This document shows, in pieces, positions 27,679 to 39,123 of a DNA stretch of 40,035 nt. The stretch is from a virus, in the UHGV virus genome UHGV-0090445. One strand, 5' to 3'. The position numbers and the translations under genes are program-made. The number at the start of each line of letters is the position of its first letter. The first letter of the stretch is position 1. Below the pieces are notes generated by a model, which was not told where the DNA came from, ran no database searches, and saw nothing but the letters and a program-made list of their open reading frames with translations.

Positions 27679-29559
27679 TTAATACTCTGTCACGTTTTCC
27701 TGTCGCCACGCCTCGTCATATTCCGATTTCGGCATATTGGCGATGTAGCTATATGGCGATCCTGATTCAAGTTGCAGGAACTGGTGCGATTGTTCATCAA
27801 GGAACAACGGGACACCACCTTCCCAACCTTCGCCGTTACGTTGTTTTTCTAGCATCAAAACAGATGCCGGAGACGCCAGTAGCTGTTCGTCCTTCTCTGA
27901 CATCTTTTCACCACTCTGAACTCTCTGTAACGCTCTCTCGCGAGCCTTGTTACGCCAGATGATGAAAAGGTTGTCTGTCAGGTCTGTTATCGCTCCAGAG
28001 CCTTTTACGTCCATTTTCCCGGTTGGTTTTTCTTCGCTGTCTCCTTTTCGCGAGTGAGTAACGAGAATGACGTGGGAGTTTGTTTTGTTTTTGAAGTCGC
28101 AAATCGAGTCAACAAACGCCTTCTGCCCGTTATAGTCATCGTCGCCTATGCCACATTTCATCAGGCTGTCGATGATGAATAACTGGATCCCGTATCGGCG
28201 GCGAGCGTAGTCGAATATTTCGATCAGCCTGTCGGCTTTCGCCGTTCCGGTCAGGCCAAACACCCAGAGTCTTTCGTCATAGAATTTAAATGCAGAGTCA
28301 ATTTCAAGCACTGGCGGCATCTTGCAGCACGTTGCCTGACGGGTAAGGCGCTTAAGGAGAATACCAGGCTTCAGCTCAAGTGACGCGATGCACGTCTTCA
28401 CACCCTGACGCATTGCCTCAAGTGCCATATGCCCGACAACCTCCGTTTTTCCGTGACCGTTCACACCATTGACCAGCGTCAACTCGGCCTCACGGAACTG
28501 GAATTTATCTGCCAGAGATTCCCACGGTGGATTAAACAGATACTGCTGCTTGCCGTAGAAAGCGTTGATAGTGTCCTGGTAAAACTCTCGCGCGCTGTAG
28601 AGTTCTTCAGGGTCGAAGTAGGATGCCGTGCCGATGTACTGCCAGATTTCATCCTCGGTAACACCGTTCATCAGGCATTCGTTGATGTCTTTGTACGGCA
28701 GAGTAACAAGACGGCAACGATGTTCACCGAGTCGGCTTGCGATTTCCCTTGCGGCTTCACGACCAACATCATCAACGTCCATCGAGATGAATATTTCCTC
28801 AAACCTGTCGAGGTTGTGATACTCAAACTCAATCCACTGTTGCTTAGCGCCTTTCCCGCCACCAAACGGCACGGATAACGCCGAGATGCCGTATTGCGCA
28901 TAGCTCATACAATCAATTTCGCCTTCGCAAAGTACAACCGCCCTCACGCCAGCGTCCAGAGCCTGCCATCCGAACAGACAAGGTTCGCAATCACCTTCTG
29001 CCATAATTACTTTCTTCCCGTCCGGGCGATCAGTGCTGATTCGCTTGACCTGCAACAACTCACCATCGCGTTTGTACGGAAGCACCAGAGCATCCAGTTC
29101 TCGCTCTCCATTCCACACCTTGCCGCTGACAACCTCGTAGCGCTTTACGACTTCTGGCGATATACCACGCGATTGCAGGTACTCAAGATGGGATTCTGTT
29201 CTGGTAACGTAGCGGGCGATTTTCTTGCGATCAGGTCTGGAGAATTTTTTCTCACGTTTGGCATCGAAATGGTGATCGTCATCCTTGATACCGAGAAATG
29301 CTTTCGCTTCCTGCATAGCCTGATGCAGGTTAATTCCACGACATGCCATCCACAAATCAAGCATGTCACCGCCGTCTCCCTCAGCGAAATCAGCCCATTT
29401 TTTCTTGCCGCTAAGGTTGACCTTAAGGCTGTTTCCCTTGTCACCGTTGACGTTACCGGCAACCCACTCATGCCCCTCTTTCTTGCCGTTTGGCAACAGG
29501 TGCGGAGCCACCCTGTCAACCTGCGCCCAAAGCAGGTCGCTCAGTTCACTTGGAGTCAT
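27679..29559 (-). CDS. Bifunctional primase-helicase (Toprim-type primase N-terminus, DnaB-like helicase C-terminus)
   Basis: 626 aa; Toprim-like acidic motifs (VVLCEGEIDCMS, FISMDVDDVGREAAREI); Walker A LVNGVNGHGKTE and DnaB-like FIIDSL...; downstream of the initiator gene. Confidence 0.85.
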   Translation of the reverse strand: MTPSELSDLLWAQVDRVAPHLLPNGKKEGHEWVAGNVNGDKGNSLKVNLSGKKKWADFAEGDGGDMLDLWMACRGINLHQAMQEAKAFLGIKDDDHHFDAKREKKFSRPDRKKIARYVTRTESHLEYLQSRGISPEVVKRYEVVSGKVWNGERELDALVLPYKRDGELLQVKRISTDRPDGKKVIMAEGDCEPCLFGWQALDAGVRAVVLCEGEIDCMSYAQYGISALSVPFGGGKGAKQQWIEFEYHNLDRFEEIFISMDVDDVGREAAREIASRLGEHRCRLVTLPYKDINECLMNGVTEDEIWQYIGTASYFDPEELYSAREFYQDTINAFYGKQQYLFNPPWESLADKFQFREAELTLVNGVNGHGKTEVVGHMALEAMRQGVKTCIASLELKPGILLKRLTRQATCCKMPPVLEIDSAFKFYDERLWVFGLTGTAKADRLIEIFDYARRRYGIQLFIIDSLMKCGIGDDDYNGQKAFVDSICDFKNKTNSHVILVTHSRKGDSEEKPTGKMDVKGSGAITDLTDNLFIIWRNKARERALQRVQSGEKMSEKDEQLLASPASVLMLEKQRNGEGWEGGVPLFLDEQSHQFLQLESGSPYSYIANMPKSEYDEAWRQENVTEY

Positions 29560-29669
29560 TACGCTGACCTCAGATCGAGACGGTTAAACCAGAACTCAAC
29601 GAATGCAGAACTAAGCCAGCCATGGTTATAGCCAGCGATAAGTAACGATTTGATTCTGGATTTCATGGT

Positions 29670-30467
29670 TCACCTGTCGAAAAACACGTAGCCAGTTTTC
29701 GATACGGTGATTGCGGATGATGGTTTGGATTGTGGTTGAATAGTTTCTGGCTTCTCGTCGTTCCAGCGTTGACCGTTCAGGTAGCTCGATGGTAACAACC
29801 TGTCGAACCCGAACTGCTTACCGAGCCTGCACGCAATGTCTTCTGCCAGCATCGTGGCAAACTCGCTTGCCGTCCCCCTGGTAGTTTTACGCCATTCCCT
29901 GAACTGTGTTCTGAATGCTGAAGCTGCGTTTTTCTTCCCGGCTTTCCGCATGCCTGCACACCAGAATATTTCCTCGAATGCCTTGTCGGTTTCTTCGTGA
30001 CGGTCAGGAGTTTTTTCACACTCTGTTCGGACATGTTCGAACATAATGTTTTTAGGTTCATTGACTGGTTCAAAAGAGTGATAGGTTCTGGGGGCAGCTC
30101 CTGCCCCACCCCCTAGGGCAGCTCCTGCCCCACCCCGGGCAGCTCCTGCCCCACCCCGGGCAGCTCCTGCCCCACCTGATTCTGGTTGGATTTGTTGTGC
30201 ATTATCCAGCGTCAGATAAAAAACGTTTGACTGGTTAAGCTCTCCTTTTCTTCTGAATTCCCTTTTCAAAAGCCCCATCTCTTCCAGTGCCCTAATGTGA
30301 CTTTTTACTGTCGATCTGCTCACCTCACACTGGTCAGCGACATGTTGATATGAAGGCCAGCATTCGCCATTATCATTGGCGTTATCGGCAAGTTTAATCA
30401 GAACCAGTTTTCTCAGTGGGTTGCCAACCTTTATATTCATGGCCTTAGCCATAAGATTCATGCTCAT
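29670..30467 (-). CDS. Replication initiator (O-like, winged-helix HTH N-terminal domain) containing the origin iterons
   Basis: 265 aa; N-terminal RKLVLIKLADNANDNGECWPSYQHVADQCEVSRSTVKSHIRALEEMGLLKR; internal peptide repeats GGAGAAR x4 encoded by the iterons. Confidence 0.75.
   Translation of the reverse strand: MSMNLMAKAMNIKVGNPLRKLVLIKLADNANDNGECWPSYQHVADQCEVSRSTVKSHIRALEEMGLLKREFRRKGELNQSNVFYLTLDNAQQIQPESGGAGAARGGAGAARGGAGAALGGGAGAAPRTYHSFEPVNEPKNIMFEHVRTECEKTPDRHEETDKAFEEIFWCAGMRKAGKKNAASAFRTQFREWRKTTRGTASEFATMLAEDIACRLGKQFGFDRLLPSSYLNGQRWNDEKPETIQPQSKPSSAITVSKTGYVFFDR
30094..30176. repeat. Origin of replication iterons: four dyad-symmetric repeats with 21-bp spacing
   Basis: GCAGCTCCTGCCCCACC at 30094, 30118, 30139, 30160; each contains GGGGCAG/CTGCCCC inverted arms; located inside the initiator coding sequence as ori-lambda is inside O. 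Confidence 0.7.
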
Positions 30468-30619
30468 TTTGACTTCTCCGAAGTTTTGTACCTGTTAAGT
30501 ATTTCTCTCAGTGGCACAGCTATTGCTGGATTAACCCCCTGATAAAACTGGTCACGTAGCACATCTTTTCGGTGATTAACGCGTTTATTTTCCTGCGTTT
30601 TTCGCATATAATTACCTCG

Positions 30620-30689
30620 TTGGATGTTGTTAAAATTCCATTTGTATTTGATCAGAACGCTCGGTCTTGCACACCGGGCGTTTTTTATT
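30620..30689 (+). ncRNA. oop-like antisense RNA overlapping the 3' end of cII
   Basis: 3' part CCATTTGTATTTGATCAGAACGCTCGGT-cttgcac-ACCGGGCG-TTTTTTATT resembles remembered lambda oop 3' region and terminator; -10 TATAAT at 30607..30612. The 5' end and promoter are less certain because upstream sequence diverges from lambda. Confidence 0.45.
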
Positions 30690-30926
30690 GGTGAGAATCG
30701 AAGCAACTTGTCGTGCCAATCGAGCCATGTCGTCGTCGACGACACCCCATTCAAGAACAGCAAGCAGCATTGAGAACTTTGGAATCCAGTCCCTCTTCCA
30801 CCTGCTGATCTGCGACTTATCAACTCCCACAGCTTCCGCTGTCTTCTCAGTTCCAAGCATTGCGATTTTGTTAAGCAACGCACTCTCGATTCGTAGAGCC
30901 TCGTTGCGTTTGTTTGCACGAACCAT
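30630..30926 (-). CDS. cII: CII transcriptional activator (lambda-type)
   Basis: Internal start Met21 of ORF 30630..30986; MVRANKRNEALRIESALLNKIAMLGTEKTAEAVGVDKSQISRWKRDWIPKFSMLLAVLEWGVVDDDMARLARQV... essentially identical to remembered lambda CII. Confidence 0.9.
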   Translation of the reverse strand: MVRANKRNEALRIESALLNKIAMLGTEKTAEAVGVDKSQISRWKRDWIPKFSMLLAVLEWGVVDDDMARLARQVASILTNKKRPVCKTERSDQIQMEF

Positions 30927-31005
30927 ATGTAAGTATTTCCTTAGATAACAATTGATTGAATGTATGCAAATAAATGCATACACCATAGGTGTGGTTTAAT
31001 TTGAT

Positions 31006-31037
31006 GCCCTTTTTCAGGGCTGGAATGTGTAAGAGCG
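31006..31037 (-). promoter_or_regulatory. nutR (boxB hairpin plus boxA), lambda-type
   Basis: Minus strand reads CGCTCTTACACATTCCA (boxA) then GCCCTGAAAAAGGGC (boxB), matching remembered lambda nutR; flanked by lambda-like tR1 region sequence. Confidence 0.8.
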
Positions 31038-31045
31038 GGAATGTC

Positions 31046-31261
31046 TTAAGCGGCTTTGTGTTCCGGAGGGAACACGTCATCAAGACTGACTTTTGCGCCT
31101 AACTTGTTTAGGCATGCAACAAGAGCGCGGCATGTTTTAAGGTCTGGGAAGCGACGACCAGATTCCCAATGTCCGATAGCTCCCTGTGTGCATCCAACTG
31201 CCTTAGCAAGTGTTGTTTGAGAGATATTCAGTGACTCTCGATATTTTCGTAGGTTGCTCAT
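31046..31261 (-). CDS. cro: Cro-like HTH repressor (XRE family, non-lambda immunity)
   Basis: Internal start at ATG 31261 (MSNLRKYRESLNISQTTLAKAVGCTQGAIGHWESGRR...) with SD GGAGGG; divergent from the repressor gene. Confidence 0.8.
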   Translation of the reverse strand: MSNLRKYRESLNISQTTLAKAVGCTQGAIGHWESGRRFPDLKTCRALVACLNKLGAKVSLDDVFPPEHKAA

Positions 31262-31287
31262 ATGCCCTCCATAGTAACCATGAAACA

Positions 31288-31316
31288 ATAATACGATATG
31301 TACTTTTAGAATGCAA
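31288..31316 (-). promoter_or_regulatory. pR-like promoter within the OR region
   Basis: Minus strand -35 TTGCAT, 17-nt spacer, -10 TATTAT upstream of cro; GTAC-containing dyad motifs nearby (operators not precisely defined). Confidence 0.45.
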
Positions 31317-31378
31317 ACAAAAAATACATCTTGTGCATGGATGGTTTTAGTACAGAGCGTAATAATAAGGGTATGAAA

Positions 31379-32032
31379 ATGAAATGGTATGAACTGGCTA
31401 GATCCAGAATGAAAGAGCTCGGCATAACTCAAGAGAAGTTAGCTGAAGAGCTTGGTATGACGCAGGGTGGAATTGGTCACTGGTTGCGCGGATCTCGTCA
31501 TCCATCTCTTGACGAGATTGGTGTGGTGTTTAAATACCTTGGTATTGATAATGTCTCATTCAACCACGACGGTACATTTTCACCTGTTGGCGAATACTCA
31601 TCTGCCCCCGTTAAAAAACAATATGAGTACCCTGTTTTTTCTCATGTTCAGGCCGGGATGTTCTCGCCTGAGCTTAGAACCTTTACCAAAGGTGATGCGG
31701 AGAGATGGGTCAGCACAACCAAAAAAGCCAGTGATTGTGCGTTTTGGCTTGAAGTTGAAGGTAATTCCATGACCGCGCCAACAGGATCCAAGCCAAGCTT
31801 TCCTGACGGGATGTTAATTCTCGTTGACCCTGAGCAGGCTGTTGAGCCAGGTGATTTCTGCATAGCCAGACTTGGTGGTGACGAGTTTACCTTCAAGAAA
31901 CTGATCAGGGATAGCGGTCAGGTGTTCCTACAGCCACTAAACCCGCAATATCCAATGATTCCATGCAATGATAGCTGTTCCGTAGTAGGGAAAGTTATCG
32001 CCAGCCAGTGGCCTGAAGAGACATTTAGTTAA
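31379..32032 (+). CDS. cI: CI/C2-type prophage repressor (HTH plus LexA-like S24 autocleavage domain)
   Basis: ORF 31331..32032, probable start ATG 31379 ([35 protein letters not shown]...); C-terminal S24-like region with GNSMTAPTG and catalytic-type Lys. Confidence 0.85.
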
Positions 32033-32157
32033 CAGCCTCACCACTCTAAAACACACAACAATAACCCGACCTTAGCGTCGGGTTTTCTTTTTCCAAAATA
32101 TAAACCCATTAAATACAAAGCGTTATAAAAAACCAATTATATTTAGAACATTTTGTA

Positions 32158-32186
32158 TTGACTCGATAAAGTACAAATCGTACTAT
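32158..32186 (+). promoter_or_regulatory. pL-like promoter
   Basis: -35 TTGACT (32158..32163), 17-nt spacer, -10 TACTAT (32181..32186), about 40 nt upstream of nutL; adjacent GTAC-containing dyad (AAGTAC-aaatc-GTACT). Confidence 0.5.
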
Positions 32187-32226
32187 TTAGCCATCAGCAG
32201 GACGCACTGACCACCATGAAGGTGAG

Positions 32227-32256
32227 GCTCTTAAAAATTAAGCCCTGAAGAAGGGC
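32227..32256 (+). promoter_or_regulatory. nutL (boxA plus boxB), lambda-type
   Basis: GCTCTTAAAAATTAA followed by GCCCTGAAGAAGGGC (32242..32256) then AGCATTCAAAGCAG, matching remembered lambda nutL. Confidence 0.85.
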
Positions 32257-32442
32257 AGCATTCAAAGCAGAAGTCTTTGGGATTGGATGAATGCGCAGGC
32301 TGATGCGCACACGAATGTAACTTGCTGGTCAAGTCTCCCCACAGCGACGGGGGTGCAACTGATTCATTTCGTGGCATGTCTAGCTAGCCGGGGTTCAGCG
32401 CCGGCCATCCAATCACCAAAGCTAACTGACTGGAGAATCCAG

Positions 32443-32769
32443 ATGGATGCACAAACACGCCGCCGCGAACGTCGCGCAGAGAAACAGGCTCAATGGAAAG
32501 CAGCAAATCCCCTGTTGGTTGGGGTAAGCGCAAAACCAGTTAACCGCCCTATTCTCTCGCTGAATCGCAAACCGAAATCACGAGTAGAAAGCGCACTGAA
32601 TCCGATAGACCTTACGGTGCTGGCTGAATACCACGAACAGATTGAAAGCAACCTGCAACGTATTGAGCGCAAGAATCAGCGCACATGGTACAGCAAGCCA
32701 CGCAGTGAAATGGGTGTGACTTGTGTTGGTCGCCAGAAAATGAAATTAGGCAGCAAACCACTTATTTGA
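32443..32769 (+). CDS. N: Antiterminator N (lambda-type)
   Basis: Internal start ATG 32443 of ORF 32287..32769; MDAQTRRRERRAEKQAQWKAANPLLVGVSAKPVNRPILSLNRKPKSRVESALNPIDLTVLAEYH... matches remembered lambda N arginine-rich motif and body. Confidence 0.9.
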   Translation: MDAQTRRRERRAEKQAQWKAANPLLVGVSAKPVNRPILSLNRKPKSRVESALNPIDLTVLAEYHEQIESNLQRIERKNQRTWYSKPRSEMGVTCVGRQKMKLGSKPLI

Positions 32770-37885: not shown

Positions 37886-38408
37886 TTATCAGGCACTGCG
37901 TGCTAAGGCAGAAAAAGCAACGTGTGGCGAGTGGTCGCTCGAATATGGAGAGAGCCGATTTGATTGTGATGATGCGCTAATTCATCGTGACATTGTTGGA
38001 TATCTTCCCATTTGCAGAATTGAAGGAGCGCATCCTGAAAGCGGTTTCGATGAAGATTTCCAAACTGAACAGCAGGCCAATGCTGAATTCATCGCCGCAG
38101 CCAATCCGGCTACCGTGCTGGCACTACTGGATGAACGGGAAAGGAACCAGCAATACATCAAACTCCGCGATCAGGAGAACGAGGAAATTGCGCTAACGGT
38201 AGGGAAGCTGCGTGTTGAGCTGGAAGCCGCAGAGAAGCGCATTGCAGAACTGGAAGCACGGGAGGTTGTACTGCCGCGTGCGCACGATGTTCACCCATTA
38301 GGGCCGCAGTCGGCGAAAATTTTTTGTGAGTTTCACCGGAGTATCGTGAACAGATGCGCCGATGAGATTCGCAAGGTTGGCGTCAAAGTCAGCATCAAGG
38401 GGAATTAG
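37872..38408 (+). CDS. Ead/Ea22-like protein
   Basis: 178 aa, GTG start preceded by AGGAGG; motif QQANAEFIAAANPATVLALLDERE followed by coiled-coil-like segment, typical of Ea22-like proteins as I recall them. Confidence 0.65.
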   Translation: MSQIDYQALRAKAEKATCGEWSLEYGESRFDCDDALIHRDIVGYLPICRIEGAHPESGFDEDFQTEQQANAEFIAAANPATVLALLDERERNQQYIKLRDQENEEIALTVGKLRVELEAAEKRIAELEAREVVLPRAHDVHPLGPQSAKIFCEFHRSIVNRCADEIRKVGVKVSIKGN

Positions 38409-38412
38409 GGAT

Positions 38413-39123
38413 ATGGCTGAACTAACCAAAGAATGGCTGAAGCAAACTATCGCTGAATACGAAGCCAATCGTGATGAATTACCGTTTGGACTGGATACCA
38501 ACAGTGCCATTGGGCTTCAGGCGTTCAAGTTGGCGCTGGCATCACTGGAAGCAGAGCCGGTGGCGTGGAAGGCAACCTTCACGCAAATTAACCATGAATG
38601 TAATACGTTCACCCTTATGAATTCTGACAAAGCAGAAATCGAACGGTGGGTGCGACTGCATAAAGTAGGTGATTTTCGGGCAGAAATAACACCGCTTTAC
38701 GCAGCGCCGCCAGCGATGGTAGTGCCTGATGAAATGGATTTACTTACCTGCCATCTCGACGGTGTAACTGAAACATATGCTGATGGCTGGAACGCCTGCC
38801 GTGTCGCCATGCTTCAGTCCGGAAACTTTCGGGATAATAAGAATTCGTCAACCAACAATTTTCGGGAAATCCCGGAAACGTCAACCAGCTCTCCGGGAAC
38901 TCCGGCTGGCTGGATAAGCTGTAGTGAGCGAATGCCTGAAAAGAACCAGAACGTGCTTATTTCGGTGAATTTCGATAGCTCTCTGGTTGAACCGCTAATA
39001 TGCTCCGCACGCTATACCGGAAGCACCTTTCGACGCGGAGATGCAACGATTAAGCCGGGTAATGGTATTGAGCAAGCAACCCACTGGATGCCGCTACCAG
39101 AACCGCCGCAGGAGATGAAGTAA
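38413..39123 (+). CDS. Hypothetical protein with DUF551-like C-terminal region
   Basis: Internal start ATG 38413 (MAELTKEWLKQ...) of ORF 38362..39123; C-terminal WISCSERMPEKNQNVLISVNFD...WMPLPEPP resembles DUF551-type phage domains. Confidence 0.55.
   Translation: MAELTKEWLKQTIAEYEANRDELPFGLDTNSAIGLQAFKLALASLEAEPVAWKATFTQINHECNTFTLMNSDKAEIERWVRLHKVGDFRAEITPLYAAPPAMVVPDEMDLLTCHLDGVTETYADGWNACRVAMLQSGNFRDNKNSSTNNFREIPETSTSSPGTPAGWISCSERMPEKNQNVLISVNFDSSLVEPLICSARYTGSTFRRGDATIKPGNGIEQATHWMPLPEPPQEMK

Follow-up and report, generated by a model that had tools for sequence, protein, structure and literature searches.

The junction between cII and the replication initiator gene of the virus genome UHGV-0090445 raises two questions: whether an antisense unit equivalent to lambda oop survives there with its promoter, and whether a 47-amino-acid (aa) open reading frame (ORF) lying between the two genes is a real gene. 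We analysed the whole stretch of 40,035 nucleotides (nt), hereafter the window, in which the early-right operon of a lambdoid prophage corresponds to the minus strand. A preliminary description of the junction had noted a hairpin and U-tract over the 3' end of cII resembling lambda oop, an upstream region differing from lambda, and a minus-strand ORF with a good Shine-Dalgarno sequence whose stop overlaps the initiator start, and had left both questions open. We consider that the locus is likely a standard lambdoid junction with two overlapping functional units, a pO-oop-tO unit on the plus strand and a real 47-aa gene on the minus strand. This reading is carried by the anatomy and homology observed at the junction, and by the computed signs that the protein evolves under purifying selection, that the -10 element is conserved and that the terminator keeps its structure.

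Predicted oop RNA, terminator and candidate promoter

We predicted an oop-like antisense RNA on the plus strand (Table 1). Its start was placed at G30619, with the -10 hexamer at -12 to -7, and its end at A30687, the A after six U residues, by analogy with lambda OOP. The predicted RNA overlaps the last 58 nt of cII, stop codon included, and thus lies antisense to this gene with a 3'-end overlap. The terminator scan reported a hairpin at 30654-30684 with 12 pairs, six of them G-C, and the T-run TTTTTT was read from the sequence at 30681-30686. In the core stem, ACGCTCGG (30657-30664) pairs with CCGGGCGT (30674-30681) around a loop of 9 nt. The fold of the predicted RNA has an energy of -20.3 kcal/mol (z score -3.0) and consists of the terminator stem of 12 base pairs (bp) and a weak 5' hairpin. 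In the alignment to the junctions of lambda, as the preliminary description had proposed, and of 434, the terminator stem is unchanged and the 3' 48 nt are homologous to lambda oop; the 5' 20 nt and the promoter region are unrelated and not alignable beyond the -10. Similarity to lambda stops 5' of ~30637, except around the -10 element. The oop-like label thus holds for this unit, both by the homology of its 3' part with lambda oop and by its position antisense to cII, and the described difference from lambda upstream is also borne out. An Rfam scan of 29500-32500 with E up to 10 gave nothing relevant, only a chance TLS-PK1 match and no match to an oop model.

The DNA of cII is 96.7% identical to lambda (lambda 38286-38646) from ~30637 of the window rightwards. 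In megablast searches of phage genomes, lambda, 434 and HK633 matched the window from 30634-30637 rightwards at 96-98%, and positions 30300-30695 matched Min27, phi24B and Stx2a phages with 100% identity. The lambda-type and Min27-type identity tracts share only ~60 nt, which correspond to the 3' part of oop. Since the two tracts meet in so short a segment, the window is read as a mosaic in which a cII of lambda type is followed by a replication module of Min27 type, and the conserved oop segment is, on the same alignments, the recombination linker at this joint. Such a joint, lying inside oop with lambda identity from 30637 and Min27-type identity to 30695, agrees with another explanation, namely that the hairpin and U-tract are a passenger relic carried along with the cII 3' end as linker, that the promoter was lost when the modules were joined, and that no oop RNA is made. 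We regard this as improbable, mainly on account of how the terminator and the -10 element have been conserved.

The pairing of the terminator stem has been kept while its sequence changed. For the comparisons we gathered 73 related loci out of collections of genomes, viruses and metagenomes. In the aligned stem, 99% of the cells are paired, compared with 28-62% in slid controls, and the covariation score of the stem was reached by none of 500 shuffles. Three stem pairs have changed on both sides (C-G to U-A, G-C to C-G, and G-C to A-U or C-G). These compensatory changes lie within cII codons and preserve the pairing despite amino-acid changes in cII, a cost that speaks against a relic. Loci whose cII 3' ends are wholly different also keep a terminator at this spacing. 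A hairpin followed by a T-run was found in each of the 51 distinct oop-sense segments, 63-86 nt beyond the predicted start. At least three of the terminator sequences are unrelated to one another, one of lambda type, one of P22 type and one of a third type, and such replacement with the distance unchanged argues for function and against a relic. Furthermore, the P22-like prophage BTP1, in which OOP RNA was detected by transcriptomics (PMC7067206), has the same layout including the small gene orf48, and its orf48 is identical to that of P22. Judged from its sequence, the oop unit of the window looks intact.

The -10 hexamer of the candidate promoter pO falls between the ribosome-binding site of the small ORF and its ATG, which are read on the opposite strand. 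CATATAAT is invariant across 40 distinct upstream segments, and the candidate -35 is invariant in all relatives. The persistence of a perfect TATAAT in all relatives, although the adjacent -35/-10 spacer varies, is difficult to reconcile with a promoter lost at module joining. Taken together, TTTATT-17-TATAAT of the window has 9 of 12 consensus matches, and the lambda promoter, TTGAGT-17-CATAAT as read from the alignment, also has 9 of 12. The lambda -10 CATAAT contains the O start codon. The start of lambda oop is G38675, with base 38694 placed at -19 (Hayes 2012, PMC3349717).

Several points weigh against a functional oop unit, and most of them would suit the relic. The -35 is poor, with 3 of 6 matches, and the promoter scan, whose threshold was at least 4 of 6 per hexamer, did not report pO. 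The invariance of CATATAAT could also stem from the overlapped translation-initiation region of the small ORF. The two strands of the window together contain 13 copies of TATAAT, and a single copy alone is not significant. The 10-bp 5' stem-loop of lambda OOP is absent from the fold, in which the 5' hairpin of 30619-30688 has only 4+2 bp compared with the 10 bp of lambda stem-loop I; the 5' 20 nt of the predicted RNA are unrelated to lambda, and the RNA is ~8 nt shorter. In lambda itself, a pO fragment of 45 nt, with no more than the -10 and -35, showed no activity and one of 94 nt worked (Hayes 2018, PMC5869508), and therefore the two hexamers alone do not guarantee activity. Considering that the -10 is perfect, invariant and located at the position of lambda pO, and that a terminator always follows downstream, we conclude that the oop promoter probably survives the junction; the part of the answer that falls short is the -35. 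Another candidate, TGTTAAAAT at 30628-30636 on the plus strand, is extended -10-like and lies inside the predicted oop RNA, and it was rejected since it is not conserved in relatives. This motif is the reverse of the cII stop region and is absent from lambda.

If the two units function as predicted, RNA polymerase would start ~7 nt past TATAAT, near G30619, and the transcript would stop at the hairpin and U-tract (30654-30686), giving a ~69-nt RNA that could base-pair through its 3' 58 nt with the end of the cII mRNA. If it acts as its homologue lambda OOP does, its pairing to the pR transcript would cause RNase III-dependent loss of cII mRNA, and less CII would push the phage towards lytic growth. 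The small ORF would be translated from the pR transcript via its own GAGGT site and, being translationally coupled to the initiator through the ATGA overlap, would be the first cistron of the replication module, while its first 15 codons would also hold the oop promoter on the opposite strand. We infer the firing of the promoter, the exact ends of the RNA, the antisense mechanism and any role of the protein from these sequence features.

The 47-aa ORF and the invariant block within it

The minus-strand ORF is present as it had been described, with a GAGGT ribosome-binding site at 30614-30618, 6 nt ahead of its ATG, and with its TGA overlapping the initiator ATG as ATGA. Taken alone, a 47-codon ORF is not significant against chance. 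However, the start, the length and the stop are conserved: the ATG and a ribosome-binding site (GAGGT or AGGAG) were found in every related locus, and the stop/start overlap is likewise kept in each of them, as ATGA or ATGAGTAA. Several loci have an in-frame stop merely 4-12 codons 5' of the ATG, and therefore the 81-aa versions given by some pipelines are not the conserved product. The phrog_1913 profile matches the small ORF over its full length. Homologues of 47-48 aa occur in Escherichia, Shigella, Salmonella, Enterobacter, Citrobacter and Pseudocitrobacter, and the exact protein is present on at least 1000 public contigs.

The protein sequence is under purifying selection. By pairwise Nei-Gojobori counts, the ratio of nonsynonymous to synonymous differences (pN/pS) is ~0.2; pS and pN between the window and locus L059 are 0.69 and 0.15, and between the window and locus L051 0.23 and 0.04. 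For codons 16-30, pS is 0.55-0.97 and pN is 0-0.13. Among 23 distinct alleles, synonymous variation occurs in 14 of these 15 codons, where most residues are fixed, compared with 2 of the 10 codons 6-15 (Fisher p 3e-4). A point to be set against these codon tests is that they draw on ~6 independent lineages in a highly recombining region. By evolutionary criteria, namely purifying selection and conserved start and length, the small ORF is a real gene.

This evidence also bears on the reading that the ORF encodes no functional protein and is either a leader delivering ribosomes to the initiator or conserved merely as pO DNA. The ATGA or ATGAGTAA overlap would be expected of a leader, codons 43-44 (TCGGAG) bear the ribosome-binding site of the initiator, and the invariance of codons 6-13 at the DNA level points to a non-coding constraint there. 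The ORF has no family in Pfam or NCBIfam, a fold search gave no relative, and the Prokaryotic Genome Annotation Pipeline (PGAP) of RefSeq does not call it in the E. coli genomes examined. But codons 16-30, which lie outside both the promoter and the initiator ribosome-binding site, change almost only synonymously, and a motif of the protein recurs at matching positions in the P22 orf48 subfamily. In addition, a GGAG belonging to the initiator lies within the small ORF at 30476-30479, at 8-nt spacing, so that coupling would not be the sole translation route of the initiator. We therefore find it very improbable that the ORF is a leader or promoter DNA only; the selection on codons 16-30 indicates that the small peptide has a function of its own, beyond coupling and pO.

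Codons 6-13 coincide with a 22-nt block, GGTGATTAACGCGTTTATTTTC, which extends from -48 to -27 of the predicted oop start and includes the -35 candidate and a near-palindrome, ATTAACGCGTTTAT (30575-30588), of 14 bp centred ~38 nt upstream of that start. The variable -35/-10 spacer is flanked by two invariant patches, and this arrangement argues against a single recently exchanged segment. The test of the block concerns few independent lineages in a region of frequent recombination. Two other causes of the invariance were rejected: the pR-sense fold is not significant (z -0.59), which leaves no sign of mRNA structure, and a second copy of the palindrome, which would be expected of a repeated operator, was not found within the window. 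The best available explanation is possibly an extended pO, and we infer a link to the lambda fragments (Hayes 2018) only by analogy. More speculatively, the block may be a functional element on the upstream side of pO, as an extension of the promoter or as a binding site for a regulator, and pO and the small ORF together may form a portable adaptor with which unrelated initiators are swapped and oop control of cII is kept. We hold this idea to be tentative and doubtful as yet; if it is true, the first third of the small gene is doubly constrained. In a bolder version, the 47-aa helical protein could itself act on the cII/oop switch or on replication initiation.

The small ORF belongs to the same PHROG as P22 orf48, whose match to phrog_1913 has an E of 1.3e-26, and it occupies the same slot between cII/oop and the initiator, with a stop overlapping the initiator start; the labelling of the ORF is supported in this respect. 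Its length also falls within the 47-48 aa of these proteins, it carries the conserved central motif K-x-[IV]-L-R-D-x-[FY], and K-D/N-V/I-L-R-D-Q/R-F at residues 14-21 is common to both proteins. There are reservations about this kinship. By BLASTP, the match to P22 orf48 is only these 8 residues (KDVLRDQF/KNILRDRF, residues 14-21, E 0.01), and the hhalign match of the two subfamilies, although in the same register, is weak (E 0.003, probability 10%). Pfam DUF2740 matches P22 orf48 with E 2e-28 and does not match the small ORF even at E 10. Because of the missing DUF2740 match and the weak profile-profile match, the main support for homology to orf48 comes from the PHROG profile, the position and the length. 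On these grounds, the small ORF is assigned as a relative of P22 orf48 from a divergent subfamily. A search with a HMMER profile of the subfamily against 1.84 billion cluster representatives gave one true cluster, the remainder being repeat-protein noise, and the subfamily appears narrow and enterobacterial.

The AlphaFold2 model of the small protein is a two-helix hairpin (helices 3-25 and 27-46) with a predicted local distance difference test score of 76, which is moderate confidence. Foldseek of this model against the PDB gave nothing meaningful (best E 7.7). A ribbon-helix-helix DNA binder was considered and dropped, as the model has no N-terminal strand. The likeliest role for the protein would be that of a small helical accessory factor heading the replication module. 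Full-text literature contained no functional study of DUF2740 or hkaW that we could find. The phrog_1913 entry and RefSeq phage records label orf48/DUF2740 proteins as 'tail protein' (for example, P22 NC_002371 32349-32495; L060 850-996). Because these genes lie in the early-right operon, with c1 on one side and the replication genes on the other, this label is, as judged from gene order, clearly a propagated annotation error. The 'orf48' named gnarl1 (PMC12373910) follows that paper's own accessory-gene numbering, and it was not used for P22 orf48.

Replication module, neighbouring genes and occurrence

Table 1. Features of the cII-initiator junction and its surroundings in the window
Feature	Position	Strand	Evidence
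Predicted oop-like antisense RNA, ~69 nt	30619-30687	+	lambda/434 oop alignment, fold
Intrinsic oop terminator	30654-30686	+	terminator scan, fold, covariation
Candidate pO -10, TATAAT	30607-30612	+	sequence; aligns with CATAAT of lambda, P22
Candidate pO -35, TTTATT (3/6; 17-nt spacer)	30584-30589	+	sequence
Invariant 22-nt block, GGTGATTAACGCGTTTATTTTC (plus-strand letters)	30571-30592		identical at DNA level in 23 alleles
Small ORF, 47 aa (MRKTQENKRV...)	30464-30607	-	phrog_1913, E 4.7e-22
cII, lambda-type, 98 codons including stop	30630-30923	-	Pfam Phage_CII, E 3e-47
cII stop TAA	30630-30632	-	read from sequence
Replication initiator, 265 aa, HTH_36 N-terminal domain	29670-30467	-	Pfam HTH_36, E 5.5e-14; PHROG replication-initiation families
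Iteron-like array, 3.9 copies of the 21-bp unit GGGCAGCTCCTGCCCCACCCC	30092-30176		Tandem Repeats Finder score 143
35-codon ORF	29559-29666	-	phrog_21848, E 2e-28
Primase-helicase, 626 aa	27679-29559	-	
cro	about 31046-31262	-	
cI	31331-32032	+	

We looked for one exclusive partner of the small ORF among its neighbours, and this idea was refuted by the variation of cII, initiator and helicase. The cII gene upstream of the small ORF shows 30-100% identity among the loci. The N-terminal domain of the initiator is HTH_36-type in most loci and lambda-O/P22-gp18-type (Phage_rep_O) in L004, L005, L057, L059, L079 and L080. The helicase is usually a primase-helicase and is of the DnaB type in L076; the same primase-helicase is found with a P22-type orf48 in mEp043, Sf101, S135 and SEN22. 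As no exclusive partner exists, the small ORF is a fixed element at the head of replication modules whose other parts are freely shuffled. That position suits an ORF with two roles, to carry pO and to couple its translation to that of the initiator. The six initiators with the Phage_rep_O domain are mosaic, having a C-terminal domain 56-64% identical to that of the window, and in the Salmonella loci only the last 19 initiator residues are common with the C-terminal part of the window protein.

The iteron-like array inside the initiator gene is presumed to be the origin. The iterons, GGGCAGCTCCTGCCCCACCCC, encode GGAGAAR-like repeats. Initiator length ranges from 243 to 282 aa among relatives that are otherwise >90% identical, which suggests a variable iteron copy number. 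Just downstream of the iterons, still in the initiator gene, a perfect 10-bp palindromic repeat, TGTTCGAACA, is present in 2.1 copies at 30024-30044; it was also flagged as terminator-like on the plus strand by the scan, and it may be part of the origin. The 35-codon ORF is located after the initiator and ahead of the primase-helicase, its stop and the helicase start overlapping as TAATG. Its identity is 68-100% in each of the 13 related loci examined, and it looks like a second conserved micro-gene of the replication module.

Of 5426 complete E. coli genomes, 116 match at least 80% of a 281-bp junction query (30440-30720), and the query matches at 100% in E. coli S51 (NZ_CP015995.1). Among the E. 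coli matches listed, RefSeq annotates cII and the initiator and not the 47-aa ORF; in some GenBank phage records the ORF appears as a hypothetical protein. A very common prophage gene is thus missed by the RefSeq pipeline.

The junction has the standard lambdoid cII-oop-orf-initiator layout and is not peculiar to this phage, the cII-oop-orf-O-P order having been published for many lambdoid phages (Hayes 2012, PMC3349717). As an ordinary, previously described junction it offers little that is new in principle. What is modestly new is an ORF subfamily outside Pfam DUF2740 that the RefSeq pipeline leaves unannotated in the E. coli genomes examined, and an oop variant lacking the lambda 5' stem-loop. 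The block frozen at synonymous sites in the small ORF may be a third, as a possible extended oop promoter, and it is a concrete candidate for the 'extended pO' deduced genetically in lambda (Hayes 2018).

Comparison with known lambdoid junctions

The lambda pO-oop-tO unit is found at the same place as the unit in the window and is likewise antisense to cII, whose 3' end it overlaps by 55 nt compared with 58 nt here. The lambda OOP antisense RNA has 77 nt, and the predicted RNA ~69 nt. The two units have the same terminator stem and differ little in the 3' 48 nt. In both, the -10 is interlocked with the translation start of the next gene, and the 5' end of oop abuts the ribosome-binding site of that gene. 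On the other hand, the 5' 20 nt and the whole promoter region of the window are unrelated to lambda in sequence, with TATAAT in place of CATAAT as the -10 and TTTATT in place of TTGAGT as the -35. The terminator loop is 6 nt in lambda and 9 nt in the window, where it adds one residue to the dispensable CII tail. Furthermore, the promoter is carried by O in lambda, whereas it is carried by the 47-aa ORF in the window.

The Shiga toxin (Stx) phages Min27, phi24B and Stx2a are identical to the window at the junction itself, the identical segment including the small ORF and the oop-like unit, and oop-like sequences have been reported in the cII-O regions of Stx phages (PMC5488031). In these phages the balance of lysis and lysogeny controls toxin release, and an intact-looking oop unit is therefore useful to know. 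They differ from the window in having another cII allele upstream (~43% protein identity) and a primase-helicase gene with a ~1-kb insertion, which the window lacks. The small ORF is annotated in only some of their records. In phiXuzhou21-Stx2a (L002 1-2281), phi24B, Min27 and Stx2a_F403, the primase-helicase homologue matches in 2-3 pieces over ~2.9 kb, and the helicase coding sequence of the Xuzhou21 record has 2907 nt compared with 1.88 kb for the window gene. The insertion could be an intein or a homing element.

P22 differs from the window in its terminator and -35, which are unrelated in sequence, and in its initiator, gp18, to which the HTH_36-type initiator of the window has no similarity. 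Nevertheless, the order of elements is the same as in the window: c1, oop terminator, oop promoter, orf48 and gene 18, according to the annotation of the P22 record, where the oop promoter overlaps the orf48 start and the oop terminator lies within c1. HK620 (hkaW), HK022, VT2-Sakai (H0097) and BTP1 have P22-like junctions too. In these junctions, as in the window, the start of an ORF of 47-48 aa falls within the oop promoter, and its stop overlaps the start of the initiator.

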